From contig NC_087245.1 in NCBI RefSeq assembly GCF_037042905.1, positions 26,724,001 to 26,788,000 on the forward strand: a stretch of 64,000 bases of DNA, in the 5' to 3' direction. The translations under genes were made by a program, and so were the position numbers. Positions 21,158 to 63,822 of the stretch are shown here, one piece after another (positions within the stretch are counted from its first letter, which is position 1; each line of letters begins with the position of its first letter). Under the pieces are notes generated by a model. That model was given only the letters and a program-made list of their open reading frames with translations, made no database searches and was not told the origin of the DNA. This DNA is from Lytechinus pictus. Lineage: Eukaryota.

Positions 21158-21722
21158 ACCCGCCAATGATCATCCTCTTCACAAAGATCTCATGCTCATT
21201 CTCTGCAACATCCTCGCTGTTACCCACCAAGGATCACTGTCTTGACAAAGATCCCAAAGTCACTCTCTGCAACCTCCTAGCTGTTACCCGCCAATGATCA
21301 TCCTCTTTATAAAGATAACAACATCATTCTCTGCAACATCCTCGCTGTTACCCGCCAAGGGTCACCATCTTTAGAAAGATCTGAGGTCATTCTCTGCAAC
21401 ATCCTTGCTGTTGCCTGCCAATGATCATCCTCTTCACAAAGATTCCAACATCATTCTCTGCAACATCCTCGCTGTTACCCGCCAGGCATCATCCTCTTCA
21501 CAAAGATTCCGAGGTCACTCTCTGCAACATCCTCGCCGTTACCCGCCAGGCATCACCCAAGGTCATTCTCTGTAACATCCTCGCTGTTACCCGCCAAGGA
21601 TCACCGTCTTAAAAAAGATCCTGAGGTCATTATCTGCAACATCTTCGCTGCTACCCGCTAGGGATAACCATCTTCACAAAGACCCGAAGGTCATTCTCTC
21701 CAACATCCTCATTGTTACCACC
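21158..21722. repeat. 64-bp minisatellite with alternating subtypes
   Basis: ctctgcaac at 21201, 21265, 21329, 21392, 21456, 21520. Confidence 0.92.
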
Positions 21723-40330: not shown

Positions 40331-40674
40331 TCATGACATACGCAATAAAAACGAATGACGACCTTTACTGTGCTATTATATATAGTCTAACCGAAACACT
40401 TCACACCCCTGTTCCCCCCCCCCCCAAAAAAAAAAAAAAAAAAGGAAGCTGCTGAAGGATCGATCCGTGAACGCTAGTTAGTACTTTCTATCTGCTAAAG
40501 CACTGCGCTACGCTCCCTCACTCGATCGTTATGATGAAATTAAGAATCTTATGTACCGCGCAAAGCTTTACGATTCGCTAAGCACTGTGTGTGTTCATAT
40601 GCGTGCGTTTTGCGCCCGTCCCAGATTTTTTTACTTAGATGAGCGCTATTAATGGCGCCTGGGCATATTAGCTA

Positions 40675-40790
40675 TATTGCGAGGGGCCGATAACATAAAC
40701 AGTCATACACTCACATACACTATACACCGGGAAAAGGTCCTACCTTATAACTTGTTAAGCACAGCTCACTCGTATATTATAGGTCTGCTA
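40675..40790 (-). repeat. 3' LTR, distal part
   Basis: tattgcgaggggccgat...ggtctgcta matches 62581-62689 apart from a 7-bp indel. Confidence 0.93.
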
Positions 40791-41689
40791 CAGTATTGCT
40801 CGGAATAAAGTTGACACCCTTCCGAAGGGTCACGCATCTACCGCGAGACAGGCGTGACCCAAAAAATTACCACCAGCCGATTTCGCGCGTGAAATTCACG
40901 CGTCAATTTCACGCATGCAGCTGGCAGAAGAGAGGCCCAATGCTCACGTAAAACACGAGATTTTTTTCAGATTTGATCTCTATTTGTTCATGTAGTTTGC
41001 GCCTCAACTCTAGGCACTTTTTTGTCAAAACACGACGCAATCCCGATGCAATCCCGTCGGTTTACTGATGGATGGTCTATTATCACTTGGTCTAATCATC
41101 AGATGGGCTAACAACATTCGGGCTAAACCCACTTAGTCCAATTCTCTTTTAATTCACCATCCCGTCATTTGCACTTCAAGATATTCAACCCGATAGACAG
41201 CGGGTTGAAAATCCTAAATTCCCAATAGCTAGACAGCGGGTTGAAAAACTGCCTCAAGCGCGCGCATCAGACGAGTCCCCGCTAGAAATCCATGTGCCCA
41301 GCTCCTGACCGAGTGACCCAGTTATAGTTACATCTTTGGCTTAAAGGACGAGTAGATTATCTTTCCACTGTTTATTTGTGGAGCTAGATCCATGGTTTAT
41401 TTTTCAGTGTTTATGTTATCAAAGACGTCTTCCGTTTAAAGGACAAGTCTTGCTTTTTATGCAGGTTCCCTCATATTTCACTCTTTTAAATTGTCTTTAA
41501 TTCCAAATCGCTATTTTCTTTAATTTGAATTAATTGTTGTCTGATTTGTATTCTCATAAGTTTTCTGATATTATTTTCATAATTTTGTTTGTACTTGTGA
41601 AATATGTAAAATAAAGTCAAATCAAGTAGATAATCTTTTTCTATCTTTTATTTTTTATCTTTTGTTCTTCAATTCTGTAATTTTAATCA

Positions 41690-42905
41690 GGTACGTATTT
41701 CATTCAAAAGAACGAGTATTTTCATCATTTTTCTATTCATCATTCAAAGAAGAAGATTCGCTTTCCATCATTTTCTGTTCATTGTTTTTTTGTTTTTTTT
41801 AATCAGTAATACATCGTTCATTTAAAGGACGAGTTGATTTGCTAACCATCATTTTCTGTTTATCAATTCTGTTTTTTCTTCAATTTCCTCACTTACGTCT
41901 TTTAATCAAAGATTCGCTTTCCATCATTTTTCTGTTCATAAATTCTGCATTTTTATTTTATCAGTTACGTCGTTCATTCAAAGGACGAGTAGATTTGCTT
42001 ACCATCATTTTTCTGTTCATTGATTGACCCTTTTTTCATTTAATCAGTTACGACGTTAATTCAAAGGACGAGTATAATTCAGATTTGAGTTTTATTATGA
42101 AGTTATGAAACAGAGATTTAGAATCAAGTTAGAATTAATCATAGTTATAGAACATTAAAAAAAAAAACACAACCAATGAGATGTGAAATCCATTAAGAAT
42201 GGAACAGATATTACTAGATTTGCTAACCATCATTTTCTGTTCATCAATATTCTGTGTTTTTTTTCATCACTGACGACTTTTATTCAAAGATTCGCTTTCC
42301 ATCATTTTCTGTTCATTAATTCTGTATTTTTATTTTATCAGTTACGTCGTTCATTCAAAGGAAAGTAGATTCGTTTTTCCCAATTTCTGTTCATCATTAT
42401 TCAGTTTTTTTTAAATAATTTAATCATTTACGTCTTTTATTCAAAGAAGATTCGCTTTCAATCATTTTTCTGTTCAATTCTGTATATTTTATCAGTTACA
42501 TCGTTCATGGCAAGAACGAGTTGATTCCTTTTCCATCATTTTTTGAGTTCCATCAATTCTGTGTTTTGTTTTCATTGTTCATCAGTTACGTCTTTTATCT
42601 AAAGAAGAAACGCTGTCCATCATTTTTCTGTTCAACAATTCTGTATTTTTATTTTATCAGTTACATCGTTCATTCCAAGAACGAGTAGATTCACTTTCCA
42701 TCATTATGACGTTCAGAGCACGAGTAGATTTGCTTTCCATTTTCCTGTTCATCAATTCTGTGTTTTAATTTAATCAGTTTCGTCTGTTTATTCAAAGAAC
42801 GAGTAGATTTGCTTTCCATCATTTTGTGTTTATCAATTCTGTGTGTTTATTTTATCGGTTACGTCTTTTATTCAAAGATGATTCGCTTCCCATCATTTTT
42901 CATTT
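41690..42905. repeat. Degenerate ~70-80-bp tandem repeat inside the 8-kb TIR element
   Basis: Recurring ttcaaag(g/a)acgagtagatt.gctttccatcatttt.ctgttcat. Confidence 0.8.
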
Positions 42906-45364
42906 TTTCGCTATCAATAACAGTTGATTTTATACCCAAAGATATTAATTAACAATATCATCATCATCATTTGTATATTTATTCTCCTCATTCAATTCTT
43001 CTTATGTCTTTCACTTCTTTTTGTTCCTGTTCTTCTTTCTTTACCTTTATCTTTACCATGTTCATTCGTTCATCCATCATATCATCTGTTGCTTCTCTCT
43101 TATCCTTATCTTCTTTATCCTTTATTTCTTTCTCTTAGCCGTCGTCTTCTTCCTCCTACTTCGCCCACTTTCCTCTTCGATCGGCTATCTTGAACCCCCC
43201 CCCCCTTCCCGGAAAAAGAATACCCGCAAGTGGCCCTGCTTTAAATGCCTAGCATCAGCACTTTCTGAAAAATCTTATTCAGCCCCCCCCCCCCTGTATC
43301 TTCCTTAAATATTTTTTTTGCATGTTGTGTTACTGTTCCCTTTCTCTCCGTCCATCATTCCAGCAACAGCCTCCCCCTACAAGTAATATATCGTCTTTTT
43401 ACGCCCGCCCGTATAAGACGAGACGTAACTTGGTATCACGCTCGGTATCCGTCTGTCCCTCCATTCGTTAACATTTCCTTATAAACATGATAACTCCAGT
43501 TTAACTTAACCCGAGGCTTATATTATTTGGTGTGTATATGATACAAGCGTCAAAAGGTCAAGTCACCACCTTCCACTTTTTTTGCTTGACCAATATACTC
43601 CATTTTCCGTGTAACCCGAGCGAACACAAAAAACATTGACAAAATATCAAAAAAAATGTTTGGTAAAACATGAAAATGTTGAACGGAAATGTTAAAATCA
43701 TATAAAATGTATGGTTTTCTCAATGCTATAATACATTTTCCTAACGTTTAGCATTTAAAACGTATTTCCCTAATGTATTTTAGTAATATTAATAAAATGT
43801 TGCAATGATATATTTTTACGAATTGACTCGTTTTAATCCATGTGCATATTATCTCTTGCTAATTTGTTTATTTATATTCATTTTATGTTGCCCTGTGTAC
43901 TGTTCGTCTATATAGAACAGACAACCTGGACTTATTGTAATTGTTTCTCTTTTTATCAAGAACAGGTGATTTTATACAAAAAATATAATTGATTTTCAAT
44001 ATCAACATCTTCCTCCTTATCATTTTTCTCATGGCCATCATCGTCACTCTCATCACCACTCCGGGCCCCCAAATGCCGACTATATTGGACAATTTGGGGG
44101 TGGGCATTGATCATAGACTGGCTTAATCACTGATCAGTGGGCCGGCTTAATACATGTTCTATTCAAACAGTTACACAAAAGATCATTGTGTAACTTACAG
44201 TCTTCTCATTGTTAGCTGTTCTATAATCTTCACACCTCTATTCATTGTCCACAAAACGCGCCAGACGGTGTAATTAATTGACCCCAGTCAAGTCCACATA
44301 TAGCTAGGGTTGTTCAATTCAACCACGTTTCAAGAGTAATTAATATACGAGTAGATTCCTGATCTTATCTAATATCTGTATAAAATAATGTACACATTAG
44401 ATAGGGAAGATTGATACTGAAGAAATAAAACAATGTAAGAGTCTTGTACCGTCATATTATACATGTATGACTGATGGAACGATTGAAGTTAAAGAGAAAT
44501 GCGAGAGAAGAAAGGAAAGAATGATCTGAAGAAATAAAATAATTAAATGTATATAGACTTAAAAGAGATCGAACAAGAACGGTAGAAGAATAAAAGATAA
44601 GACAATAACAATTGATAGTGAATAAAATAAAGGGATAGACGTAGAAGATATTCAACAAAAAATTAAGAGCGATAGAAGAAAAGAGGACCGGAACTATTGA
44701 TATTGAATAATAAAATAAAGGGATTGACTTAATAGAGATTAAGAGAAATTAAGATATATATATATATATAGCAGGCGTATGTGTACGTGTAGAACAAGAG
44801 AGGTTGATACTGACTAAATGAAAGCAAATGATGGATAAATTGGAACGACTGATAAGAAAAGAAATACATGTAACCCATGCACCCCCTCACCCATGCTGAT
44901 GCCAGGCCGTCCTCGACTATACCCGATGTTCAAACTATAACTATGTTGTGCATTAAATGAATAAGGTAAGTTTGTCTTTCCACATTTCTAGCTGATTGTT
45001 TTACTTTAATCATTTTTCATACACATTCATGAAAAACGTACTGCGCAATTTAATGTCATTTAATTGGATATATTTCTTTTTTTGATTTAAGTATACTGCC
45101 ACTTCCGGACATAATTGTTTCCATTATTGTTATATTGCTTGGTTTTCCCTCATTCGCTCCCTTAATAATTTTAATCACATCATATCACTACTGAAGTTTA
45201 GGGGTGGATCCAGCTTTTTCAACGGGGCCCGGGGGTTGTATGCTTATTCAGTAAAATCTTACAAGTTGATAAAAAATGAGTTTCACTCCCAAATAAAGGT
45301 AATATATTCCACGAAAAATCTGAACATAAAAGCAAAAAGAAACCTAAACGAAAAAAAGTCAGTT

Positions 45365-45599
45365 CATGGCCGTATGCAGCGGGGGGGGGGGGGGGGGATA
45401 TTGAAAACTTAATGTTTTTTTTTTTTTACAAAATTAATTAAAGGCATGCACGAAATGCTTCAATTGCCCTTTACAGAATGGAAAGACGCAATGACAAGCT
45501 CGGTCACTTTTCTCACTTCCTTTCAATTTTTTATATTTTATGCATCTTGCCCACCCCCCCCCCCCCCCTACCCGCGAAAAATTTCTGCATACGGCCATG
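45365..45599. mobile_element. MITE with 8-bp TSD
   Basis: TIR catggccgtatgcag; (a/g)gtcagtt flanks. Confidence 0.75.
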
Positions 45600-47120
45600 G
45601 GTCAGTTCACTATGTCCGATATTTACCACAACAAATATTTTAATGACTCTCGATTGAAAGGGGGAGGGTGCTTATGCCCCCCCCCCCCCAATCCTCTACG
45701 GCTCAAATTCACATTTTTTTTTAATTTCAAAATTTGCTTGTTTCGATTTCAAATGGGATTTTCAATTTCAGAAAAATTTTCCTTAGTACTTGTTCCCATT
45801 CTTTATAAAGTTCTCGCTATGCCTCTTAGAACTTGTTTTTTGTAGTATTTCTCGTTGATATTAGGCATAATCTATTCATTTTATTTTACTCCTAAATCAT
45901 ACTATAATTAAAAGAAAAAATCCATCTCGTGCGATTACTCGTTTATGCTTTTGCAGATACCGTACCAGAAATGCACGAGCTCGAAAGAAAATCAGATTGC
46001 TTGAACTAAGTTACAACAAAATCACCAAATAGAAAGTATTTCGTGCTTTTTGTGCTATCCCGGTGATTGTTACTGAATCTAAACTCATTCTCTTCGGTAA
46101 AATGATACAGGTATTGTATTTTTTTAATGATGGACGTCCATTTTAGAGACAAAATCGGAAGTATATGCACTGTCACTGTCCTCTCTGCCTCTGGTCACAT
46201 GTACCGCCTACTACTGGTACCGTCGTGTACCGTACGATGACTACCTAGCTTAGCTACCGTATACTATTCTCGTACTAGTGACCGTGTGATGGTAGCTAGC
46301 TAGCTAGTACTTACTACTTAGTAGTACAATTCTTCAAGACTTAGTTAAGCCCAGGCCTAGCGTTGATCGTATACCCATATATGCTTACTTTGTCTTTGTG
46401 GCAATGCAGATATCGACGAGTGAGGGATATGTTAAGCACATTACAATTACAAGCCTTCACAAGGCACAAGCAATTTTAATAATGTTGATTCTACTCGATT
46501 ATCATAATGTGAATGTCCAGTCTGATCCTTTTTATGCCCAGTCGCCATATTATTACCAAGTTAGTAAAGATCTAGTACCACTAAAGATCTATTTGAGAAT
46601 ATCGACTAGGAGTAGGATTGTAGATCTAGTCTAACCCATGCTCATGATTATGACAGTGCAGAGCTCCGATTTATCTCTATTCTGGATATGCTATCATAAA
46701 GAAATACGAAACCTGCATCATTGGACTGAAGAAGAGTAAGTCTACAACATGCACGTACTAACGTTAGGTCTACATTTTTTAAAATACAGACAGCAAATTA
46801 ACAATGTAAATGTTAATTTGCTGTCTGTATTTTAAAAAGATGTAGACCTGACGTTAGTACGTGCACATGGGCGAATTTGTAAGCAAACATAACCGAAGAT
46901 ATAATACTAATTACTTACAGTTAATTGACCTGATGTTAATCAGGCCAATGTGATCCATTGTCTGACTTCAGTGGTTCATCTTCGTGCCTGGCTTCAGGCT
47001 AATCCACCGTTGGGTCTTAGTTAAGACCAAATCTTTACTTATATTGACAAATATACATCTATATATCAAATCAAATGCATGTTTCTAAGGAATGATAAGG
47101 GGAAAAATGAGTCGAGCAAG

Positions 47121-47469
47121 CATTAGCGTACCTACGGGGGGGGGGGGGGGGGGGGCAGAGGGTACAGACTGCCCCCCCCCTGATGAGTCACGACCCATGC
47201 AAGAGACGTATCCCTGCCCCCCCTAACGAGCGAGCGAGATACAGAGATGGCCCGCTCCTTTGAACTTGAAGACCTTTTTTTTTGTCAATTTTTTTTCTGA
47301 TATGAAATCCATAATTTGTGGTTGAAGCCCTTTATTTTTATTTTTCTTGTCAAAATTTTTCCTGGTATAATATCTTTTATTTCTGGTCGAAGACCTTTTT
47401 TTTTTGCTTGTCAATTTTTTTGACGAATTTGCCCCCCCCCCCCTTTGGAAAATCCTAGGTACGCCACTG
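47121..47469. mobile_element. MITE with 8-bp TSD
   Basis: Imperfect TIR ca(tta/gtg)gcgtaccta; CGAGCAAG duplicated. Confidence 0.78.
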
Positions 47470-48804
47470 CGAGCAAGAGATGACAGCAGAGGTGACGTGA
47501 TTCAGTGAGAGGAGAGAATATAAAAACAATTCTGAAAACTACCATTCGAACAATGAAGATTAATAAAAATTGATAAAGATATATGGTTATGACAATCGGG
47601 TGACAATAAATTGACACTTAATTTTTTTTTCTTTGTTAATTCATAAACACCAGATTGAGCGTCGCATAACAACAAAAAAAGGGATTCAAAAGGATTGAGA
47701 AGAGTGGAGTAGAAAAAAAGGGTAGGGATCGAGGGAGAAGTGAGCTGAGATAGCGATAGAGTAGAAATTCAAGAGTGAGACATGGGTAAAATGGAAATAT
47801 ATCAACATCAAAAACGATAAAAAATAAAATATGAGGAAACAAGGGAAAAGAACACTGATTGTAATTAAGCATGAGTCAAGGACATTCGTGTTGCAATCAA
47901 ATTAAGCCCTGTACGTCCTGTGTTTGTGTGACTGGATCGAGTGGTGGGAGAAAAAAGGGAGTTTATCATTCCTTATATCATAATGGCGGAAGAATGTTTG
48001 GCAATAATGCACTGAAAATATGATGAAATTAAATCATTCTGGTTGCAAACAAAGTAAGAGAATGACGATAAAGGAATGTAAGGAAATAAACAATAGGTCT
48101 GTTTTTTCCAGCCTCGCGGCGTCTCTTGCTTAATCTAGCCACCCCGCCCCCCTTTCTCTCCATTTTCTTTTGCTCTCTCTCTCTTGATCATTTCCCCCTC
48201 CATCTGTCTCTCGTATCTTTCGCTCTCTCCTTCTCTTGCTCGACTCTGTCCATTCTTATCTTGGATGCTCCATTTTCTTATAACTATTAACTACTTATCC
48301 CAGAAAGTACGTGATCTCATCTCGACCCGACTTTCATTCAACGAAGTTCAGAAAGATGTAAATTTGAGGGCGATGACACGAGCGTGCATTAAAATTGTGC
48401 ACTCGCGCCAAGCTCAACAGCTCTATGATCTTTTTTTGTTTGGGTTTCGAGGAGACGGCATCTTACGGCAATAAGTTGTTGCTGTACATCGTAATTTCGA
48501 GAGAGACATCGCGGCAAGTCAGGAGGGCTAATTCGAGCCATGTGAGTTGTCCAAATGGTGACATTTTATTAATTATCAAATCAATATCTCTTCGACAGAA
48601 GATCGTCCCTCCTTCTGCGGTATTATCGCGGTAATACACGAGATTTTCAATTAAAAATCTCGTGGTACATTACCGTGGTAATTTCTCTCAGAGTGCGACT
48701 CCCGCCGATGAAAATTTGCTGGTGGTAATCGCGCGCGACCCGATTTCACATCGACTTACGCGGTACAGCGCGGTAAAGCGTCAACTTTATTCCGAGCAAT
48801 ACTG

Positions 48805-48997
48805 TACGTCCGGGGGCTGAGTATGGAATGGTGTTTCTGTGATTCCATGTGCAGTACCGGTGTGTGTATATGGTTGGTTTGTGTGTTGTGCGCAAGTTTT
48901 CCCGCCCGTGGGTCAGGTGACGTGATGTGTATAAACTGTCGTCTGCTAGCGATGTCTTCTGCTTAAATACTACAATGATTCAACCCCCCTAACACTA
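48805..48997 (-). repeat. 3' LTR, proximal part (starts with the duplicated TA)
   Basis: tacgtccggggg...aacacta matches 62688-62864; abuts the PPT. Confidence 0.93.
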
Positions 48998-48999
48998 TA

Positions 49000-49013
49000 C
49001 TTCCCCCCACCCT
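49000..49013 (-). promoter_or_regulatory. Polypurine tract
   Basis: Minus strand AGGGTGGGGGGAAG lies 2 nt before the 3' LTR. Confidence 0.85.
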
Positions 49014-49726: not shown

Positions 49727-51019
49727 TTACTTGAGGCAATACAGCTCCCTGGCGTTAATCGTCGTCTGATCGAGTAACTCTGGTAGAGGAACCCCTCGGA
49801 TAGACGCCACCACCTGCCCGACATCGCCGATAAAGGATTCTGTTTGCCAGCTGTGGCGAGGGCGGACGGGCAGGAGACTATTTCTCAGAATGGACCAAAT
49901 GCCAAGCCTCTTGAGCTTGGCATTCGCTCCATTGTAGTATGAGGCGCGTGACACCAAAGAACGCATACGGGAATGCTGACGTCCATTTGTCGACGATGTC
50001 CGGCGAACCCATGAAACAGTGCAAATGGATGCGCTGAGCGGCCGGACACCGTCGGCGAATAGCGTCGCGCGCCAGCTGGTGTATAGCGCGCGGGATAGGC
50101 TCATTGCCGGGACGAGAGCCATTGGCCCCCGGAGGTGGAGTACCAGGACTCTTCCGGTGGAGAGCCCCAGGAGCTGCTCAAAAAGCTGCTCCTGTGCCCC
50201 CCACTCGGAGTCGTCCGTGGACCAATCAAGGCCCAACTCCGACAGGCCTCTGACTCTCGGGTCAGCGAGAGCCGATCGCAACGCCTCAATGCTGTAGCGT
50301 TTAAGGCCAAAGGCCTGCTTTGGGTGGATGCCCACCGCCACTGCGTAGCCTTCAGGGAGTTCCTCGAAAACCCTGTCGAGGAAGCCGGGGGCGGAGTATC
50401 TCACTGGATCGCAAAAGTTCCATACTCCTCCGACTTCCTCGACCGGGTGTTGAGGCCGTCCCTGAAGTTCCGTTTTTCCTTTCTTTATTTTTATTCGATC
50501 CGGATGGAAGTGTGAATCGAATGCTTGCAGTGGCCGTGGGCTCTCCCCCAAAGCTTCCTCTAACATTTTTGGGGTTATTCCCCGCCCTCTCCCAATGGAG
50601 GGACACTCCACTGGATGGGGTGGTCTAGGCCAAGTGGGCAGTAGTCCACGGCCACGACCAACCCCAACCGTAAGGCCTCCACTGGTCGAGGGACCGGCTT
50701 TTGATCCAGGAAGCGGGCCTTGCGCCAACTTTTTAGCCTTCTTGGCACGCTTGGCCCGCTCTTTTCTGCGCCTGTTTAGCTCATGCTTTTTTTTAGCAAG
50801 CTCGGCCTCGTAGAGCTCCTTCTTCCGAGCATCCGCCCCTGCTGGTGCAAGAGGCGGACCCTCAGAACGGGTCTCTGAGGCCTGCTGCCTATTTTCAATT
50901 TTTGTTGGTTCGACTTCAGAGGGGGGCTCAGTGAGGGCTTCCTCTGGGGCCGAACCAACGTCTACCTCAATGTCATTGAACTCCACCCCCGGGGGTAGCA
51001 GGACTTCCTCTCCCTCCAT
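49727..51019 (-). pseudogene. ORF3: acidic/basic low-complexity N-terminus plus TatD-family metallo-nuclease domain (frameshifted)
   Basis: DSHFHPD, GIHP, SELGLD, QEQLFEQLL, VLHLRG, then IHLHCFMGS in another frame, and C-terminal TTINARELY. Confidence 0.88.
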
Positions 51020-51150
51020 TTTCTCTCTGTATGGGAAGAGAAGAATGATGCACAAATGGGGGGGGGGGGAGAATTTGGGGAAAAAAAGAAATATAAACAT
51101 GATTATTAGACGACTCATCATAATAGATGACGCATTTGTTTAGAAATATT

Positions 51151-52550
51151 TTACCTCCTCTTAGTACAGGGGGGGCAAAACCATTTCAAGTTCTCTAATC
51201 CTTCCGTCTCTGTGATACCAACGCACACTCCGTGGTACCATTCATTGCATTCTTCGCAACATATCATCAGAGAGCCATCATCAGGCTTCCGGCAGAAACA
51301 ATAGAGTTTGTCTCTGCCGGGAGTCTCAATAACCGCCCTACTCTGATCCGTACACTTTTTCAAGCGGTCATGATTATAAGTGGCTACTGTTTTTCTGAAG
51401 GCCACCCTGTAAAGATATGGGGACCTCTTCTCTACAATGATCGCCGGCCCTTTCCAAGGGATTTCCCCTTGGCACAGGCCGTGTCTCTAATGTAGACACG
51501 ATCATTCACCTCAAATTCCCGAGTGTATTGTTTGATATCGTAGTCTCGTTTCATCTTGCGCTGAGCAGATTTGATTGCAGCCTTAGCTGAAATGTGAGCA
51601 TTACGCATTGCACAAGTCAACTCGGCCACATATTCTTCTTTGTCTGCTCTTGAGCGGGTTGAGGAACAGAGAATACGAGATCAGAGGGTAGATTAACCTC
51701 CCGACCCAGCATTAGCTTGTTAGGGGTAAATCCAGTTGTACGATTTACAGAGGAGCGGATAGCACCTGCGATCTGCTGGAGATGCCTATCCCAGTCCCTT
51801 TGAGATGTAGCATCGCACTGCATCCATCACGGTCCTATTCGCTCTCTCCACTTGAGAATTTGCTTGGGGGCGGAATGCGGTCGTTTTTGACTTGTGAATG
51901 TCAAGGACACGGCACATGTCCTTGAAAAGTGTACTCTAAAAATTTCTGCCCTGATCCGTGAAGATTTTAAATGGATATCCGAACCGGCAGAAAAAACTGC
52001 TCACTGCAGCATGAGCCGTCATCTCTGCAGTTTGGGAAGGCAAAGGTACGCATTCCACCCATTTGGTAAATTGATCTACCATAACCAAGATGTTTTCATT
52101 ACCATGTGTTGTCTTTGGTAGTGGGCCCATGAAGTCAAGATGGACACGTGCCATGGGGGCGCTCGCATGAAAACTTTTCATAGGATGCCTCCCAGGGCGG
52201 GTCGCTTTCTTGTTCTGATTGCAAGTGGCACACCTGGCTATGTAAATGCGAATATCTTCTGACATGCGATACCAACAATACTTGGACTTTAGCTTAGCCC
52301 GAGTACGATTGATCCCAGCATGCCCTGCTGAAGGAGGATCATGATTTAGCCAAATGATGTCATGCCGTAGTGATTCTGGAATCACTATAACATCACCTAC
52401 ATCCTTCTTCATCCAGATAACCCCTTCTTTGAGGTAGAAGAGTTCTCTGTTCGTCCACAAGAACTTTCCCTCTGGCGGGAGGAGAAACAGAGTCCCTTCA
52501 TCCAGTACTTTCTTGTTGGTTAACCACTCACGGAGGGGCGCGAGGACCTG
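51151..52550 (-). pseudogene. pol: pol: integrase (H2C2 + DDE core + tail) ending in a PHD finger; frameshifted
   Basis: HDPPSAGH...CATC, DFMGP, VDQFTKW, TDQGRNF, VERANRT, NHDRLK followed in frame by a C4HC3 PHD. Confidence 0.92.
51166..51303 (-). other. PHD finger (CFP1/Spp1-like) at the integrase C-terminus
   Basis: YCFCRKPDDGSLMICCEECNEWYHGVCVG...WFCPPC; all 8 zinc ligands present. Confidence 0.93.
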
Positions 52551-54546
52551 GGGTGGTATTCTGAAAACGTTCTTATCTTTGTTCTTATCTTTTATCTTAT
52601 CTCACTGAGATAAGAAGACGCTAAAATCATTGCAAATCGGTATTCTGAAAATCTTCTTAACGCGTTCTTATCTCTGTAAGGACTGCCTCCTTCTTATCTT
52701 CAACACGCCCATTTTTAGGATATTACCAATCAAAATGCGCTTTATATTGGCAGTTTAACCAATAGAAGCGTTCCTTATGTGAAGAGAATATCATGGGCAC
52801 TGCGCGTACACTGTTTCTGGCGCATTGCGCGAAATAGGCATTTTGTACGCAATGACTGATTTTATTATTTCGAGACGTCCACGTGCACAAAATAAAGACA
52901 GAAAAGTAAATAAAGCAGGTACGAATAAGGAATAAAATATGAAGAAAGAAAGTAAGTAGGTATTGAAGTAAGAAGACAGAAAAGGGTCAGAATGAAGCAG
53001 AAAAAAAGATGAAAGGAACAAAGCAGAAAAATGAAAAAAAATAGAATAAACAAAAGAAAGCAAGCAAAATAACTCAAAAAGAAAAAAGAAAAAAAGAATG
53101 AATAAAAGAAGGAAAAAGAAGAAAGAAATAGAACAATTATCAATGATAAAGTGAAGGGAAAAAAATATAAAAAAAATAAAGAAAAGAACGAATCTATAAA
53201 AGGAACAAAAAAAGAAAAAGATCAGACTAAAAATAAAAAATAAAGTAACAAGGAACCGAAAAGGAAAAAAGGTTTGAAAAAAAACGAATGAAAGAAAGTT
53301 AGAAAGATAAAAAAGAAAGAAAGAGAGAAAAAGGGAATAAAAATTTAAAAAGTGAAGGAAGAAAAAAAGGAAAATGAAACATGAGAGAGAAATAATGAAA
53401 GGAAAATTAACGCAAACATGAAGACTACAAAAAGCTAAAGGAAAGAAAGCTAAATTCAAAGAAAGAAAGAAAGAAAGAACAAAAAACGAAAAGGGAAAAT
53501 AAAAAGTTAGGAAAAGAAAACGAAAAATAACATCAATGGAAAGAATAAAGAAAAAGTTAATAAAAGAAAGACAGAGAGAAGAAAGAAAGTAAAGACAAAT
53601 AGTAAATGAAGAACGAACAAAAAATGAGCGAAATAAAGAAAAAAAAGAAAGAAAGTAAAAAAAGACACAAAAAGTGTCAGAAAGCAGAAATAAAAAAAAT
53701 TAAGAAAGAAAAATTAAGAATTAAGGGAAGGAAGAAAAAGAAAAAGGGAGAAAAATAAAATCAATGATTAAAAAAAATGAAAAGCATATATAAAACGAAA
53801 GAATTTAAGAAAAAATAAGGAAGAAAAAAAAAAGATTACAAATAAATGAAGGAAGAAAGAAAGAAAAGGAAAGGAAGAGAAAAGGGGGAAAGCAGTAATA
53901 AAGACTCAGTAAAGAAAAAAAGAAAGAGATAAAACGAAAAGGGAAAATAAAAAGGAAGAAAGATGAAGTATAAATGAAACAAAGCAAAAGAAAAAAAAAT
54001 GAAAGATTCAAACAGAAGAAAACAAAAGATATAATTGAAGAATGAAAGAAAAGAAGAAAGACAGACAGATAGAAAGGAAGAAAAATAGAAAATAAATAAA
54101 AGAAAAGAAAGAAGGGATAGAAAAGAAGAGACGGTCAAAATAAAGGGTGAATTAAAGAAAGGGTGGGAGGAATACTTGTGCATTGGTATTTGTTACTACT
54201 AGTGGCCATCGATTTTGAGCAAGAAAGAACGCGTACATCGTGAGATGTGATTACCCTCTAGCTATCTTAAATATTATCTTAAATATCGTGAAAGATAAGA
54301 AAGAAAAAAGATAAGAACGTTTTCAGAATACCACTTATCTTCATTTTGTTCTTATCTTTTTAGCGCGCTTTTGTATTATATGCGCGAGTAGTAAATTTAC
54401 GCGCTCAGCATAGGATGGAAAGCAAGATAAGAAAAAGATAAGAACAAAAGATAAGAAAAAGATAAGAACGTTTTCAGAATACCAATTTGAGATCATGACG
54501 TAGATAAGAACAAAATTAAGATAAGAACGTTTTCAGAATACCGCCC
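52551..54546. mobile_element. PIF/Harbinger-type non-autonomous element inserted in pol
   Basis: 29-bp TIR ggg(t/c)ggtattctgaaaacgttcttatctt; CTG TSD; removing it restores the in-frame QEKDQVLAPLREWL; ~1.3-kb A/G-rich interior. Confidence 0.9.
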
Positions 54547-54549
54547 CTG

Positions 54550-55317
54550 GTCTTTTTCTTGCTCTTGCTTGACTAAATTGTCAGAAGGCGGTTCCTCTGC
54601 CACCTCAGCTGGGTCAACTGAGATACTTCAGATCTCAAATGAGTTGGCCTTGTTGAACAATATTTCCATGTGCGTGACAGGGAAAGTTTCTTCAACAGCC
54701 ACATTCGAGACCCTTTGGCTTTGACTTAATGGCACAACATCATCGACACAGTCGACAAAGTGCGCCCATTCTTTGTGTCTTTTGGTACAATATGAACACC
54801 CACCACACGGCAAGTCCTGTAGTCGCACACCATGCTCGTACCCTTCACACACTGATTCTGTATCAGGTATGTGCAAAAGAGAATCCGCATTAGAGTGGCG
54901 CCTACCGGGCCGGTGTTCGATTTGCATATTGTACTGCCCTAACTCCTCCAGCCAGCGAGACAGCTGTCCCGTCGGCGTTTTGAAGTTGAGCAGCCATGTG
55001 AGACTACCATGATCCGTTCTGACAGTAAAAAATGGCCTTCCTAAAAGGTAATGCCTATACTGTCTGCAGAATAACACCAACGCTAAGAGCTCGCGGCGAG
55101 TGACACAATAGTTCCTTTGTTGAGGAAAGAGAGACAAGCTGCCATAAGCTATGACCTTCTCCTCACCATTCTGAACTTGTAGCAGCTCTGCTCACATCGC
55201 TGTGCTAGAAGCATCCGTATCTAGGATGAACGGGTCATGTGCGTTTGGGAGTGTGAGCACAGGGGCTGAGGTTAAGAGAACTTTGATTTGTTCAAATGCC
55301 TTCTGATGAAACTCTGT
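54550..55317 (-). pseudogene. pol: pol: RNase H (frameshifted)
   Basis: APVLTLP..DPFILDTDAS, RNYCVTRRELLALV, TDHGSLTWL, NADSL. Confidence 0.9.
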
Positions 55318-56502
55318 TTAACTAAAAGCATTGTTGCCTGTGAGCTCATACAATGGCCCAGCCACCCGTGCATAGTCTTTCATAAACACCCTGTGATAGT
55401 TGGCCAACCCTAGGAAATGTTCTACTTCTTTAGTGGAAGCAGGGGTAGGCCAATCCACTACCCTTCGGATGTTTTCTTCTGGTAGATGCAAGCCTGTAGC
55501 ATCCACTTCCCTACCCAAGAACTCCACCTTTCGTTGAAACAAGGCACACTTCTTGGGTTTCAATTTGAGTTTGTAGTCCTTGAAACGCCTCAGGACTGCC
55601 CCTAATACCAGGATATCATCCAAGAATGCAATGAGCCACGTCCCATGTGAGACCTCTCAGGACTAAGTTCATCACACGTTGGAAGGTGGCCGGCGCATTG
55701 CACAGGCCAAATCCCATGCGGACGAACTCATACAGCCCATGTTTTGTAACGAAGGCCGTTTTGTCCCTATCTGCTTCGGTTACCTTGATTTGCCAATAAG
55801 CTGCAACGCATCAAGTTTGGAAAACCACTTGTTGCCCGCTAAAGTATCAAGGCATTCTTCGATACATGGTAAGGGGTAGACATCCTTTTTGGTGACATTG
55901 TTTAACTTGCGGTAATCAATGCACCATCGAACTCCTCCATCTTTTTTCCTCACTAACACAGGGGGCGATGCTCATTCAGACATAGACGGCTGGATAACTC
56001 CAGCGGCAAGCATCTTGTCGAGATGTGCCTGCTCCTCCTGAATGAAATTCAGGGGGGTCCGCCTCATCTTTTGTTTTATGGGCCTTGCATCACCCGTGTC
56101 TATGCTATGAGTTACCTCATTGAAACCACCAAGGTCAAACTCATCTTTTGCGAACACTGATTGATATTTTAGTAGCAGCCCTCTCAACTCCTCCTGTTCC
56201 TCTGGGGCCAGCCCCTCAATAGAGCGGCCCCAAAGGTCCAGAAGGTGAGGAGGTATGTCTGAGTCCGAAGCTTCTACAGTGTTGATACTCCTAACTGTGA
56301 CACCCTCTGAGGGTTCTATCACTGAGACTTGGTAAGCTTTCCCAATCATATCACCCCTTCGTAACTTGTAGGTCATGTCAGAGGGATTTATCAGGAAAAC
56401 TTCTGTATCTTTCTTACTTTCATGAAGGCTCCGGGGTATAAGAACGGGTATGGGCAGGAAAGGCAAAGGTTCCACCAAGAATGGGCTAGAATTAAGTGCC
56501 AC
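55318..56502 (-). pseudogene. pol: pol: reverse transcriptase (frameshifted)
   Basis: HSIDTGDARPIKQ, PVLVRKKDGGVRWCIDYRKLN, DVYPLP, FLDDILV, LKPKKCALF, FLGLANYHR. Confidence 0.93.
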
Positions 56503-56523
56503 CGAACACTTAACCCTTCGAAA

Positions 56524-57117
56524 CTAACATGGAGGAACACAAACGCCCTTATCTACACACACCTTTGCCGTACTCCCCGAATCTTCGCGTTGGATTATTG
56601 GTAGGTTTTCACCGTTCAGAGTTAGGATAGCATTTGGAATGCTAATATTGGCGTTGTGTTTTCTTAATAGATCAACGCCAAACAACATCTCATCTGCTAT
56701 CGGAGCTACGTGAATCTCCTCGTTGAGTATTTGGTTACCCAGCTGGAGCTTGATAGGTCCTATCACAATGCCATCCATTGTCATGTCTCGGCCAGCCCCC
56801 TTAAGAACTACACGCTTAAGGATTGGCAGCCGAGGCTGGAGGCGATGGAAAAGCCTATCAGATATAATGGTGACAGCTGCCGCAGTGTCCAAAACGGATG
56901 TAATGGGCTCCTTGCCAACTGTCAACTCAACACTCAATGTTGAAGTAGACACAATTCTACAAATGACTTCTTCAACCTCTTGATCTTTAACATCACCAGA
57001 AATGTCTGGTGGCCATGGCGGATTCCTCCAAGGGTGCTCAGTTACCTTAGAGAATTTCGGGCTCCCTGGGCTTGCTTGTGAGTCCGGTGCCTGTTGGTTC
57101 CCATGGTCTTGTGGCAT
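56524..57117 (-). pseudogene. pol: pol: aspartic protease
   Basis: VLDTAAAVTII (DTG-like active site) and MLFGVDLL. Confidence 0.88.
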
Positions 57118-57128
57118 AAGGCTGCCCT

Positions 57129-59513
57129 TTAATGGAATGGGGATGGCGGGGGAGGGGATCTCTGATCGGATCGGGGACTCCCCATCTCCGCCGATCCCTG
57201 TCCATTTCCCTCCTCCTCGAAGGTTACAGCCCTTACTTGTCTACTGTTCACAGGCGATCTTCCCATGGGGCAGGCCCTGCTGAAATGGCCTTCTTCCCTG
57301 AAACAGCCTGTGAAGTTTCGCTGACGATCAGTTGTAGTTGGCGGAGGGCCAGAAAATGGCCTTCGGCCTCCTACTGACCGATCTGGTGTCAAATTTGAGT
57401 TAAACCTCGGCCTGTCTGGCGTACCTGGAGCCCGACCAGAGGTATACTTTGGTCTGTCCGGGGTACCAGGAACTCGGCCGGAGGTGTATTTCTGCCTGTC
57501 AGGTGTAACAGGGGCACGGCCTGAGGGGTACCTCGACCGGCCTACCGACACCGACAAGAGTTCCTTTGTGCTTCGAGATAGATCCGTGATCGCAGCGACC
57601 ATCGAATCCATCTTGGATGCCCATACTGCATTTTGGCCTGCCAGAGCACTTATTCTAGCCTCAAGGCTAGAATTTCCCTTCTTGGCAGCCTCTTGGGGAG
57701 ACATCTTTTGCACCCTTAGGTCATTATCATCATTTCCCATCGAGAGCTGCCTTACCTCTTTTCTCGACCTAGGGCCATGCGTATGCATGGTCTTCTGGGT
57801 AAACTGAAACCATGTGTACTTAGTCATGTCTTCATCTAATGTCCCAGGACGAGAAGTCAGGACATGATGCCCTGCATCTTTGTCTTGGGCACCTTTGCAG
57901 AACCTTGCCACTACAAGTTCTTGGACGAACTTGTCTGGAAGGCCTACAAAGGCCTGACCTGCAAGTGTCATAAGCCTATCTGCCCATTTGATTATGTCTT
58001 CATCCGAGCGTTGGAAAGCCGATTGAAATTGCATCCGAGTAACTTCCGGCTCATCCTGGAGAGCAAACCGCTTCTCCAACTTGGTAACCAAGTGAGAGAA
58101 GGAGATATTTGGGTTGCTCTCCTGGATGAGAGCCATGAACTTACTAGCTTCAGCCTCCAACGCCAGACACAGCTGATATTTCTTGTCTGCATCAGACATG
58201 CTGTGTCTTTCGGTGTATAGTTGGAACTTTGAATAGAAGGCCGCCCAACTTCCTTTGCCGTCGAACGAAATAGTCTTCGGCAAAGGGGTTGGTCTAGAAG
58301 GGGGCCTTCTGTCGTCATACACAGCACCACAGGTCTTGAGGCCGAAGTCTGGTGACGCGGGGCGGTTGATTTCTTGTTGGCAGCCCCAAGTATCCAGGAC
58401 TTACTGATGGCCTTGTGGTGTTTCTGTGTTCATTGTATACTGGGTCTCCTTGTCCATCTCCTTGGGGTCCAGTGCCTTGATACACAGGGTTGCTACCCCC
58501 ATATTGCAAGTCACATGGTCCTTGGGGAGAGGTTTGCGGGGCCACAGTGTTAGGATATTGTGGCGGATATCTGCCTCCAACCCATGGTGGGCAATATCCA
58601 CCATAGGCGGCAACAGGGTTGCCGTATGGAGGAGCTGGTTGTCCAATTCCTCCAAATGGCATCATTTGCATCATCCTAAACATCACGCCATACATTTCCT
58701 CATACTGTGCTTGTGTAAAGTGTGGAACGGCCTGTGGATAGCTATGTGGAGGTGTCTGGGTAGTTTGATTGAACATTGCTGGTCGGCCACCCTGAGCTCT
58801 GGGAGCCTGACCATGCAAATCTACCTGGGCATGAGGACCAAATTGGAACTGGGGTCCTGGTGGGGAAGCTACCTGGGCACGAGGACCAAATTGGAACTGG
58901 GGTCCTGGTAGGGAAGCTACCTGGGCACGAGGACCAAATTGGAACTGGGGTCCTGGTGGGGTAACTTGGTGGGGACCCTGTGGTGGGAACAGGCCATCGT
59001 TCCATCCTGAAAATCCAAATTGATTTGCCCAGAGGGACTTAGCCCTATCTTCTGGAGAGGCCGAAGGCTGCTGAGTAGAAGCGCCACCTGGCCTCCCCCC
59101 TGTGAAAAATGAGGGGGCCTCCCCGGCCTGTGTCTGAGAAGACTGGCCTACGGCACCCTGTGCGCTATGTGCACGGGTGTGCTGTGGCCAAGCCTCAAAC
59201 GCCTGGCTCACGGGGGGCTCCTTTGATTGAATAAGTGAACGCTCGTAGAAGGCTCGTCTCCTTTGGAACGCACTTCTCTGCGGTCAACATTACGAGCCGT
59301 TGTTGTTGGCTCATAATCAAAGGCGTAAACTAACAGTCCCGCCTTCGGTACGTGAGGTATTGACAAGAATATATCCGGAGTAAGGTCGGCCGCCTCGGCC
59401 GCCTCCCTCGCGTGTAGAATGCGGTTGGCGGTGGCCATACCCACTCTGGGCAGACTCATCAATTCCTCAGACGAACAAAAATTGATTTTAATTCTTGGAA
59501 TGTTGCTTGCCAT
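57129..59513 (-). pseudogene. gag: gag: N-terminal HhH, Pro/Gln/Gly-rich spacer, capsid-like domain, degenerate zinc knuckle; two frame breaks (~59210, ~58320)
   Basis: ATG at 59513 in aagATGG context (MASNIPRIKINFCSSEELMSLPRVGMATANRI); ISFDGKGSWAAFYSKF capsid-type motif; CFREEGHFSRAC knuckle remnant. Confidence 0.82.
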
Positions 59514-59691
59514 CTTGATGTAGGGAATAAAATTAATCAGTAACCAAAAAAGACTCACAATAGTCAATTGAAAATAAATTTGGGACAAATTAAATTCCAA
59601 AATTGAACTGTAATTAACCAAAAATTATCCTGCAGACTACTTTGTCTTGCGGATAAAATCAAAATAAATCTGGGACAAAATCAACTTTTAA

Positions 59692-61257
59692 ACAAGTGGA
59701 ACGCCTCTGGCAGTCTCGCCTGCATTACGCGATTTTAATATCGCAGCAGTGCTAACTTTGAAAACTACTATAAAATAATCATTCACAAAAACACCATTCA
59801 TATAATGACATAATACCACGTTCATTGACCATAAATGACATTTGAACGGTGACTTAAGACTTGTCAACTACACCCATGTCCACATTTCATTCACTCTATC
59901 TATAAACTTTCAAAGTTATGATGGCAATTCAACAATTACCCTTACATGGCCTAAGTTTATTGACCTTAACTGACCTTTGACCTTGGTTTTGTGACCTGAA
60001 ACTCACAGGGGATGTTCAGTGATACTTGATTACTCTTATATCCCAAGTTTTATGAACTAGATCCATAAACTTTCAGAGTTACAATGGTAATTCGACAAAT
60101 ACCCCCAACATGGCCAAAGTTCATTGACCTTTAATGACCTTTGACCATGGTCATGTGACCTGAAACTCGTACAGGATGTTCAGTGATACTTGATTACTCT
60201 TATGTCCAAGTTTTATGAACTAGATCAAAGTACAAACGTACAATAAATGCTGCACTTTATTCAAAATCCATGTCATTTTCACCAAAATTTGCAGAGTTGT
60301 AGAGGAAGGTATACCTAAGAGGTACAAACATTAAAAAATAGGGGTTCATGTGCTTGTTTTTAAACTATCAGCATTTTTATTAGAGCAAATGTGCTTTTTA
60401 AAACACCAAAAATGGGCCGAATGCTTAGTATCTATGTGAAGAAAATATCAAAACCACTCTACCATTCATTCAAACTCGGGGTAATATATGTGATTCTTGG
60501 CAGCACTGCAGAGTAAAGTATTTTGAAATTGTAGAGAATATTTTTTTGAATGGTCTATGAAATAATTCAATTTTTTAGCTTCATGAAATAACGCATCGGA
60601 TCTGCAGTTAAAGTGCAGAAGATGAGAAAAATCAGCTCATACCCGCAGCTAATTAATCACCTGTTCATCCATTGTGACGTCAGCGCGCAGAGTCTAAACT
60701 ATGCGCAGATCATAATGCGCACAAATTTAAATGTTGAACTTCCTTAACCTAATGTCCAAGTTTCATGAACTAGATCTATAAATTTTCAAAGTTATGATGG
60801 TAATTCAACAAATACCCCCAACTTGGCCAAAGTTCATTGACCCTAAATGACCTTTGACCTGGGTCATGTGACCTGAAACTCAGGCAGGATGTTCACTAAT
60901 ACTTGATTAACCTTATGTCCAAGTTTCATGAACTAGGTCCATATACTTTCTAAGTTATGATGTCATTTCTAAAACTTAACCTTCGGTTAAGATTTTGAAA
61001 ATAATTCTCCCAACATGGTCAAAGTTCATTGACCCTAAATGACCTTTGACCTTGGTCATGTGACCTGAAACTCAGGCAGGATGTTCAGTAATACTTGATT
61101 AACTTTATGTCCACGTTTCATGAACTAGGTCCATAGACTTTCTAAGTTATGATGTCATTTCAAAAACTTAACCTTAGGTTAAGATTTGATGTTGACGCCG
61201 CCGCCGTCGGAAAAGCGGCGCCTATAGTCTTGCTCTGCTATGCAGGCGAGACAAAAA
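59692..61257 (+). mobile_element. Helentron-associated non-autonomous element (HINE/DINE-like) in the Gypsy leader
   Basis: ACAAG start, sub-terminal gtctcgcctgca / tgcaggcgagac pair, internal tgacctttgacc tandem units, 3' hairpin and A tail; related copies at ~25330-26135 and ~32527-32765. Confidence 0.72.
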
Positions 61258-62566: not shown

Positions 62567-62579
62567 ATCTTCGTCGCCA
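62567..62579 (-). promoter_or_regulatory. Primer-binding site, probably tRNA-Ser(GCU)
   Basis: Minus strand TGGCGACGAAGAT lies 1 nt inside the 5' LTR; near-complementary to the 3' end ...AUC(C/U)UCGUCGCCA of eukaryotic tRNA-Ser(GCU), from recall. Confidence 0.75.
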
Positions 62580-62580
62580 G

Positions 62581-62864
62581 TATTGCGAGGGGCCGATAAC
62601 ATAAACAGTCATACACTCACATACACCGGGAAAAGGTCCTACCTTATAACTTGTTAAGCACAGCTCACTCGTATATTATAGGTCTGCTACGTCCGGGGGC
62701 TGAGTATGGAATGGCGTTTCTGTGATTCCGTGTGCAGTACCGGTGTGTGTATATGGTTGGTTTGTGTGTTGTGCGCAAGTTTTCCCGCCCGTGGGTCAGG
62801 TGACATGATGTGTATAAACTGTCTTCTGCTTAAATACTACAATGATTCAACCCCCCTATCACTA
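62581..62864 (-). repeat. 5' LTR (~284 bp)
   Basis: Matches the split copy with 4 substitutions and 2 indels (7 and 16 bp) by eye; directly adjacent to the PBS. Confidence 0.93.
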
Positions 62865-63822
62865 TAGCTAATATGGCCCAACTTTTTTGCTTGTCAAATT
62901 TTACACACGAAAATGTGCCCTCCCCTTTAAAAAATCCTGGATCCATTCCTGATGTAATCTTATAATAACCTGGGAAATGAAGGTTTATTTAAAATGTTTA
63001 TGTAAATCTTTAAAAAAAAAAAAAAATTTATTGAGATCATTAGTTGGTTGATTTCGATACTATATGATTAATTTTTATTCATGGCTATGAAGGAACCCTG
63101 TAATGTTAATTTCATATTCTGATTATATCTCTTGTTGTATAAATAAAAAATCAGACTAAAACTTTTGAAAAAAAATTAATTCATTTTGTCTACTATTCAT
63201 GGAAAAATTTCTATTCAGTGGGTGTGGATGCAAGAGATGTGTGCGTATATATTAGGGACGCATCATGCATCATTAGATATGGGGGGGGGGGCTAGAAGTT
63301 TTTCCAAAAAAAAATTGACTTGCTATATGTCATATGAGCAAAAAAGAAAAAACTTGACTCAGCATCAGAGTAAAAAAAACTTGGTCCACTGAAAAATCAT
63401 CTGAAACTTAACATTTAACAAAGGTGAAAAAAAAACTTTTCTCAATGAAGGAAAAAAACTAACTAAAGACTTTGTCAAAGAAAGGGAAAAAATTGCATCA
63501 ACCCAAACTTCCAGCCCCCCCCCCCCTGGGTATCTAATGGTGCATCCCTTAGTGATGCTCAGATTGGATTTCAAGATGAGTTGGATGTGGGTGGCTGGGT
63601 ACTGGTTAACCCAGGGAACTCCCGCCCGCACGGCGGGCGGGAGCCCAGGGGCTTACCGTGTATTTGACCATACTCACGGGACTAGCGTGATTTATGGTCT
63701 AAATATTTCTCCAAATGAATTGTGAAAACAGAAATTATTCACTTACCACGATTATATGGATGAAGGTCTAACGAGTGGCAGTTTCCTGACATCGAGGCAC
63801 AGACTGGAACTTCAAAAAAACG

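Follow-up and report, generated by a model that had tools for sequence, protein, structure and literature searches.

The stretch analysed here, called the window, comprises 64,000 nucleotides of Lytechinus pictus DNA (contig NC_087245.1, positions 26,724,001 to 26,788,000). Its minus strand carries a Ty3/Gypsy retrotransposon at 40675-62866, a wider span than the 49727-59513 assigned to it in a preliminary description of the sequence. In Pfam scans the domains of the element follow one another in the order HHH_3, PNMA/gag, aspartyl protease, a reverse transcriptase (RT) fragment, RNase H, integrase H2C2, rve and PHD, and a TatD_DNase domain then follows in a separate frame. The preliminary description had reported a helix-hairpin-helix (HhH) at the start of Gag, a PHD finger ending the integrase and a separate TatD open reading frame (ORF), and Pfam found all three in those places on the minus strand: HHH_3 (E 4.5e-6) at the Gag start, with its ATG at 59513, PHD (E 1.7e-11) at the end of Pol (51151-51486), and TatD_DNase (E 9.1e-12) in a 470-codon frame at 49727-51139. 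The matching long terminal repeats (LTRs), primer-binding site (PBS) and polypurine tract (PPT) that it mentioned are real, but they are situated outside the span it gave (Table 1).

We are close to certain that this copy belongs to an old, still mobile Ty3/Gypsy lineage of marine invertebrates with gag, pol and a separate TatD gene, hereafter ORF3, between its LTRs. Searched with a TatD query, the genome yielded 73 matches, many of which lie within long intronless frames. When 10-kb stretches were taken at 20 of the 73, integrase was found upstream of TatD at 16 loci, representing nine distinct families, and TatD was alone at four (L025, L030, L031 and L039). An RT search of the genome gave 150 scored matches among 1183 candidates, and these are divided by a gap in identity, with 34 matches at 70% or more and 116 at 54% or less. 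TatD lies at most 10 kb downstream of 27 of the 34 RTs of the clade, versus none of the 116 other Gypsy RTs (Fisher p 1e-23, near-copies not being independent), and the scored matches show ORF3 to be confined to this one RT clade. Two of the seven clade RTs without TatD still have the ORF3 zinc-finger domain described below downstream of them. In three sister copies TatD lies between LTRs that are 97-100% identical, with target-site duplications (TSDs) GCGA, AAAT and TGGA; because these LTRs have diverged so little, the three-gene form must have moved recently.

The other two modules were examined with family profiles. A profile of the HhH matches all 18 TatD-retrieved loci whose Gag start is covered, seven of which were used to build it, and a profile of the Pol tail with the PHD matches 34 of the 34 loci with an integrase match, which had been selected by TatD and again include seven that built the profile. 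At L038 neither domain is called by Pfam itself. The proposal of a lineage that stably carries HhH, PHD and TatD is thus borne out by the RT linkage, by these two profiles and by the purifying selection on TatD reported below. A one-off capture, which had been named as the outcome that would speak against it, is not what we find, since LTR-bounded copies with TatD occur in the genome and the same gene order recurs in metagenome contigs. The assignment to Ty3/Gypsy follows from direct LTRs, a TSD, PBS and PPT, a Gag with capsid and zinc knuckle, and the order protease, RT, RNase H, integrase; when the RT-RNase H region is compared with solved structures, Ty3 ranks first (E 1e-78), the next one has E 1e-51 and retroviral ones have E 1e-30.

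The TatD domain of the lineage is of class II, that is, with an H-x-H site. Among 155 aligned segments from 153 proteins, the metal ligands are kept in 95-100% of the rows that cover them (H-x-H, 126/126 and 123/126; E, 147/153; H, 147/153; H, 149/153; E, 147/150; D, 142/150). The predicted model of the domain from a sister copy (pLDDT 90.1) is a TIM barrel of the TatD fold, for which Foldseek gave Staphylococcus aureus TatD as best match (E 3e-17, TM 0.74). In a tree of 49 rows the 39 element-type TatDs form one clade (100/97), which shows that the TatD of the lineage had a single origin. The clade joins an intron-containing TATDN2-like gene of the host against nine bacterial TatDs (99/96). 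What is more, a G-x-x-x-x-F-C-x-P insert (F/Y-C-x-P) is common to the host gene and the six element rows printed, and is lacking from five bacterial rows. This points to capture of the domain from an animal TATDN2, without proving it.

To measure selection, 55 TatD sequences were compared, among which 15 pairs had usable synonymous divergence (dS). Five independent pairs with dS of 0.2-0.7 gave ratios of nonsynonymous to synonymous divergence (dN/dS) of 0.07, 0.11, 0.14, 0.20 and 0.35; the estimate leaves out five pairs with dS below 0.14 (dN/dS 0.42-0.57, three with a decayed copy) and three near-saturated pairs. In one pair the ratio was 0.11 for TatD versus 0.07 for integrase. These sequence comparisons show the TatD domain to be under purifying selection, and the pairs gave no sign of positive selection in it. 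Across 23 elements (L066 and L074 were omitted as too short) integrase and TatD distances are correlated (Mantel r 0.62, 0/5000 permutations as high), which indicates that TatD has mostly been inherited vertically together with integrase, perhaps with some exchange. The TatD tree is about 2.6 times as long as the integrase tree (mean distance 2.67 versus 1.02), and the element families that keep TatD are only 31-45% identical.

The copy in the window is dead, a broken representative of its lineage. Between its two LTRs there are 4 substitutions over 289 aligned columns (~1.4%). Compared with a sister copy, the frameshifts of gag and pol counted in Table 1 are frame-changing indels, and the nonsense codons in pol are true ones. 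ORF3 has frameshifts at ~50130 and ~49947, and its TatD frame seems open because the two cancel out; a 24-nt deletion at ~49874 takes out the catalytic E-T-D motif, so that, judging from the sequence, this TatD cannot be active. The element has also received three nested inserts.

Table 1. Features of the retrotransposon, in window positions.
Feature	Position	Strand	Basis
5' LTR, 286 bp, ends TATAG...AATA	62581..62866	-	similarity to both 3' LTR pieces; edges set by TSD and sister copies
Splice donor within LTR, AAG/GT, exon end 62643	62638..62647	-	motif and junction in run X1
PBS, 1 nt inside LTR end	62569..62579	-	identical site in three sister copies
Nested repeat-derived insertion in 5' leader, ends approximate	~59690..61252	not assigned	alignment gap versus sister copy
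gag: N-terminal ComEA-like HhH, Pro/Gln-rich linker, capsid (PNMA/Retrotrans_gag), zinc knuckle; 3 frameshifts	57129..59513	-	Pfam and sister-copy alignment
pol: protease, RT, RNase H, integrase, C-terminal PHD; 5 frameshifts, 6 nonsense codons, one insert	51151..57240	-	Pfam and sister-copy alignment
Nested non-coding 2-kb element in integrase: terminal inverted repeats, 3-bp CTG duplication	52551..54546	not assigned	alignment
PHD finger, C4HC3, DIDO1/PPS/CFP1/TAF3/BPTF type, at integrase end	51151..51300	-	Pfam and PDB matches
Splice acceptor, pyrimidine tract and CAG ending 51027, 7 nt before ORF3 ATG (51019-51017)	51017..51045	-	motif and run X1 junction
ORF3: basic RG-rich disordered N-part and class II (HxH) TatD domain	49727..51019	-	Pfam, alignment
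PPT adjoining 3' LTR	49000..49013	-	window and sister copies
3' LTR, first piece	48805..48999	-	LTR similarity
8.0-kb insert dividing 3' LTR: perfect 25-bp terminal inverted repeats, TA duplication	40791..48804	not assigned	alignment
3' LTR, second piece, then TSD copy	40675..40791	-	LTR similarity
4-bp TSD GCTA	40671-40674 and 62867-62870		flanks whole element

The insert in integrase is one that we take to be Harbinger-like, and the ends of the 8.0-kb insert are presumably of the Tc1/mariner type. The leader insert has subrepeats in common with 25355-26140 and 32519-32766 of the window. A further 110 bp between the LTR match and the PBS were considered as an insertion, and this was rejected because the sister-copy alignment makes them part of the LTR. 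Elsewhere in the window there is a broken IS1595/Merlin-like DDE transposase (35570-37025, minus strand; DDE_Tnp_IS1595, E 1e-16), and tandem arrays with units of 95, 157 and ~64 bp together with a cluster of a dispersed 43-bp repeat occupy 11195-12919, 27883-28810, 21132-21733 and 39317-40321, the cluster being just left of the 3' end of the element.

In the four TSD-bounded copies of the window's family (the window and three sisters) the LTRs end in TA...TA and not in TG...CA, which is usual for Ty3/Gypsy elements without strictly defining them. The LTRs of this family start with TATAG, finish with TTA or ATA and are flanked by 4-bp TSDs; LTR finders that require TG...CA would be expected to miss such elements. 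This determination covers one family, the LTRs of the five-copy C6/C4/C1/C2/C11 family being outside the stretches examined. The PBS, which we presume to be tRNA-Ser(GCU)-like, was not located in families other than the window's.

One copy at C6:5563414-5580600 (LTRs 99% identical, TSD TGGA) is apparently nested in a copy of the same family whose gag and RT adjoin it upstream. The TatD ORF3s of L030, L031, L025 and L039 are open for 763, 775, 363 and 1180 codons, L039 having two of them in tandem, and there is no gag or pol in the upstream stretch examined; these loci may have arisen by deletion, by retroposition of spliced RNAs or by domestication. Among 28 close HhH-Gag matches, 24 have no RT within 12 kb (among the RT matches scored), many of them keeping an open frame of ~785 codons, and Gag-only non-autonomous copies seem to be more numerous than full ones. 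L106 (C7:48979600-48985600) and L107 (C16:7021300-7027300) are examples of HhH-Gag matches, the latter an internal-deletion derivative with gag open, RT gone and nearly all of ORF3 gone.

The PHD of the window has its nearest PDB relatives in PPS (E 1e-15), DIDO1 (E 2e-14), CFP1, TAF3 and BPTF, which we take to be readers of H3K4me3. The cage residues Y/F, M and W are kept in the 109 Pol homologues, out of 120, that have the full C4HC3 pattern, and Pfam scans of Pol gave no chromo family, the PHD being present instead. The PHD may thus direct integration to H3K4me3 chromatin: it would tether the integration complex to H3K4-methylated open chromatin, as the chromodomain does for other marks. 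The HhH is ComEA-like and matches solved structures weakly (E 0.007); that it lends Gag non-specific DNA binding is a guess. The preliminary description treated HhH, PHD and TatD as a kit, and nothing indicates that the three work together.

The part of ORF3 upstream of TatD is variable (157-970 residues) and turns over fast. In the window's group this part is basic and RG-rich. Most other families have in it a conserved C2H2-type finger and helical domain of ~150 amino acids, in which a C-P-x-x-x-C...H-x3-H-x-P finger precedes helices ending in N-S-P-A-x-L-x-H-W-R. This domain is present in 65 of 69 long relatives and 89 of 150 overall (ORF3s of L032-L040, L049-L051 and L088-L100; e.g. L050:7587-8069), and is missing from the window's family and its nearest families. 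With a domain conserved in most families, the lineage therefore has a fourth module, which the window's family has lost. No Pfam family was assigned to it in 10/10 members, and PDB gave only weak C2H2 matches (E 0.007). Its predicted model (pLDDT 90.4) had no Foldseek match at E 0.001 or better and a best VIA-align Z of 4.3, which does not in itself prove a new fold. An Atlas hit to zf-MYND (0.86) was rejected, the score being below the trust line and the ligand pattern different, and an Atlas search with the whole ORF3 gave only low scores. Nor was an env glycoprotein found in ORF3, for which TatD is the sole Pfam match; the best 19-residue hydropathy is below 1.6 in 10 of 14 ORF3s, and there is no consistent membrane segment. 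No fusion of TatD to Pol was found among the 153 proteins, and ORF3 is separate from Pol in every family examined.

ORF3 is probably made from an env-like subgenomic RNA, in which a donor in the LTR is joined to an acceptor before the ATG. Four sequencing runs were mapped to a sister copy, one of which, X1, consists of contigs and is only guessed to be RNA. None of the sequencing runs listed as carrying the sequence was recorded as RNA. In X1 the depth is ~100 over ORF3 versus ~12 over most of pol, and a loose end at L021:1829, just before the ORF3 ATG, reads as LTR sequence. The contigs join the LTR donor AAG/GTAAG to the CAG acceptor 7 nt before the ATG with exact GT-AG boundaries. Were X1 DNA after all, so exact a join would mean that a spliced RNA had been copied into DNA. 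The window has both sites, and the donor motif is in all LTRs of the family examined. Across elements, an acceptor after pol with an in-frame ATG within 9 nt was found in 8 of 17, versus 4 of 44 acceptor-like control sites inside pol. Made from a spliced RNA of its own, ORF3 would not be part of the Gag-Pol polyprotein. At L021:1820-1855 the RNA runs have loose ends, which were considered as splice evidence and rejected, as they reflect a 35-nt chance match.

The lineage is not confined to Lytechinus. A TatD profile search gave 567 cluster representatives at E 1e-30 or better, the best 150 of which were examined; profiles were needed, as a single-sequence search with the frameshifted TatD of the window gave only 4 proteins. 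The TatD has named relatives in Lytechinus, Strongylocentrotus, Diadema, Ptychodera and Mya, and the integrase-PHD region has them in Acanthaster, Ostrea, Pinctada, Nucella, Haliotis and Gigantopelta, the mollusc ones being matched by integrase-PHD alone. The relatives thus belong to three phyla, coming from echinoderms, a hemichordate and molluscs. A named protein of Lytechinus pictus is 100% identical to the integrase-PHD region of a sister copy, and the Acanthaster gene model P0248 fuses integrase, PHD and TatD, although it may join two ORFs. TatD also retrieved 39 metagenome loci. Three of these (L049, L050 and L066) have the full order of HhH-Gag, protease-RT-RNase H-integrase-PHD and TatD, a further nine have integrase and PHD upstream of TatD, and three are ordinary bacterial TatDs; L091, a contig from another organism, has the same gene order. 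None of 35 pattern matches among IMG/VR viral contigs was a relative.

Apparent expansions of the TATDN2/TatD family in urchins and clams, such as 13 near-identical genes in Mya arenaria, are probably this element, and so are retroelement genes filed under Sedimenticola or Thiodiazotropha. GTDB/NCBI bins named Sedimenticola or Ca. Thiodiazotropha hold many element copies and proteins (L088-L100; P0158, P0190, P0213, P0243, P0278), most likely as host contamination. That the element resides in prokaryotes was considered and rejected, since we read the Sedimenticola contigs, where RT, integrase, PHD and TatD are arranged in the element's order, as host DNA. The contig L055, with terminally repeated ends, has Gag, protease, PHD and an open 755-codon TatD ORF3 and lacks RT and the integrase core. 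The precomputed domains of the Pol relative P0280 include an RNA 2'-phosphotransferase (PF01885); this may be a further enzyme acquired by capture, or the gene call may be chimeric.

As to what ORF3 does, we lean, with a confidence just under even, to a role in RNA or R-loop metabolism by analogy with TATDN2. The human TATDN2 enzyme breaks down hairpin RNA and the RNA in R-loops, for which it requires residues matching E91, E201 and D203, and its disordered N-part is required for binding (PMC10711561). On plain RNA:DNA hybrids it is barely active, and D-loops and DNA bubbles are left untouched (PMC10711561). ORF3 would likewise be a nuclear, trans-acting, Mg-dependent 3' nuclease for structured RNA or R-loops, its basic/RG tail, along with the finger-helical domain in most families, binding nucleic acid. 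One possible task is the removal of R-loops or stalled RNA, either along the 11-12 kb transcription unit of the element or where it integrates, which would sustain its transcription and help its insertions to be tolerated. A nuclear factor acting in trans is suggested because the product lies outside Gag-Pol, has basic and zinc-finger parts and shows no consistent membrane segment, and acting in trans would fit the many Gag-only derivatives. The evidence for a separate spliced RNA and for derivation from TATDN2 shifts the odds towards such a nuclear, trans-acting and possibly RNA-directed role.

With somewhat more reserve, we propose that the whole may be an undescribed, ancient "complex" Gypsy lineage of deuterostome and lophotrochozoan marine invertebrates, resembling a complex retrovirus in having a TATDN2-type nuclease in the env slot with env-style splicing. 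Mostly it would add a zinc-finger domain with no Pfam or PDB match, and ORF3 would manage R-loops or host silencing, with a PHD that aims at H3K4me3 and with non-canonical LTR ends. If true, this would also account for many multicopy "TATDN2-like" gene models in the annotations of urchins and bivalves and for "TatD hydrolases" in symbiont bins.

A number of observations weigh against this picture. The origin from TATDN2 rests on one host sequence in a tree that has no eukaryotic TATDN1 or TATDN3, and the TatD profile scores of the host (111 bits) and of bacteria (up to 101) are close. The integrase and TatD trees share 11 of 20 splits and have one strong conflict. The splice junction rests on a loose end in two contigs of X1, and its LTR exon differs from every LTR examined, the closest being that of L107. 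The three runs that are certainly RNA gave 48, 11 and 78 reads and no spliced joint, and their few ORF3 reads are mostly in the orientation expected of antisense; 9 of 17 elements have no acceptor near an in-frame ATG. There is no GC skew favouring R-loops on the transcribed strand (0.00 to 0.05). That ORF3 is dispensable in cis follows from the 24 of 28 close HhH-Gag matches that lack a nearby RT. Finally, other TatDs are DNA enzymes: TATDN1, TATDN3 and all three Escherichia coli paralogues have 3' exonuclease and apurinic/apyrimidinic (AP) endonuclease activity (PMC10085689).

On that precedent, and as the preliminary description had already suggested, ORF3 could act on DNA, by trimming or proofreading cDNA ends, removing abasic or uracil-derived lesions or processing integration gaps, and the TA...TA ends of the four TSD-bounded copies might depend on it. 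The HhH and the C2H2-type finger also suggest DNA binding. We nevertheless think this role unlikely, because the nearest cellular relative, TATDN2, is inactive on D-loops and DNA bubbles (PMC10711561), it is hard to see how a separately spliced product would enter the particle, and the LTR ends are known for one family only. Less likely again is a counter-defence nuclease that would destroy what triggers or signals silencing, for instance cytosolic cDNA and antisense or small-RNA precursors. The length of the TatD tree relative to that of integrase and the fast turnover of the N-part are as in host-conflict proteins, and the subgenomic RNA appears abundant; a silencing-related role has been entertained for the DEDDy ORF3s of rotifer elements (PMC5408684), and parasite TatDs break down host extracellular traps (PMC10085689). 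On the other hand, the TatD domain shows no sign of positive selection. To our knowledge no TatD has specificity for silencing-type substrates.

Extra RNase H domains exist in retroviruses and plant Tat elements, and ORF3 could be a second RNase H-like enzyme for reverse transcription in the particle, given that TATDN2 is an RNase on hybrid-containing structures (PMC10711561). This is very improbable: TATDN2 is only minimally active on plain RNA:DNA duplexes (PMC10711561), the element's own RNase H domain is intact in the sister copies, and ORF3 is not fused to Pol in the families examined. The broken TatD of the window and the loss of TatD from most close copies might suggest that it does nothing for the element, whether as passive cargo or as a host gene captured once. 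We give this almost no credence, as a single origin, retention across such divergent families, intact active sites and dN/dS well under 1 all oppose it; ligand conservation, the 27/34 linkage and dN/dS have already largely refuted it.

The lineage with the TatD ORF3 is a Ty3/Gypsy member with atypical TA...TA ends, neither chromovirus nor env-bearing. Chromoviruses are Ty3/Gypsy elements with a chromodomain at the integrase C-terminus; the likeness to them is a histone-reader module on the integrase tail, where a PHD of the H3K4me3-reader type here replaces the chromodomain. With env-bearing errantiviruses and simple retroviruses the lineage has in common a third gene in the env position and, probably, the use of a spliced RNA for it, although its ORF3 has no env match. 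A parallel in expression is CERV of Caenorhabditis elegans Cer1, a spliced, nuclear, non-env accessory protein which differs in that it is not a nuclease and shares exons with gag (PMC10309623). The MolGy, CsRN1 and Mag clades of mollusc and annelid Gypsy elements have the same hosts and are defined on RT/RNase H alone (PMC6238403, PMC8556966), and our lineage may well be one of them. In the main texts of these two surveys neither "PHD" nor "ORF" occurs, nor "TatD" in the annelid one. No description of TatD, a PHD-integrase or an HhH-Gag in a Gypsy element was found in open-licence PMC and bioRxiv papers, judged mostly from the starts of abstracts, with Repbase, Dfam and GyDB outside this scope; there is a minor but real chance that a database entry or a closed paper already notes the TatD ORF. 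New here are the spliced ORF3 junction, the C2H2-helical domain in most families and the TA...TA LTR ends.

The element TatD resembles TATDN2 and class II TatDs in its HxH site, its E/H/H/E/D ligands and its position as a C-terminal domain behind a long disordered N-part (PMC10711561, PMC10085689), and it has the F-C-x-P insert in common with the orthologue-like TATDN2 gene of the host. It differs from TATDN2 in being intronless, multicopy and inside LTRs, and the N-parts are unrelated, that of the element often having the C2H2-helical domain. The closest known systems are the Juno and Vesta LTR retrotransposons of bdelloid rotifers, whose ORF3 encodes a DEDDy exonuclease or a GDSL esterase (PMC5408684; also PMC5718144). 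The folds are unrelated, a TIM-barrel TatD here versus the RNase D-like DEDDy there, and the LTRs of Juno and Vesta are TG...CA versus TA...TA (PMC5408684). Enzymatic third genes are rare in LTR retrotransposons, and in the rotifers, where they are patchy, their value to the element is unproven: they are family-specific, were gained at least twice and show no clear departure from neutrality (PMC5408684). The lineage described here, by comparison, has a captured nuclease of one origin that was kept across at least three phyla under purifying selection, apparently with its own spliced message, and has a PHD and an HhH in addition. With its TatD ORF3 one can test which functions besides Gag and Pol a retroelement requires, and the integrase PHD lends itself to testing whether integration is directed by H3K4me3, as a counterpart to chromodomain targeting.

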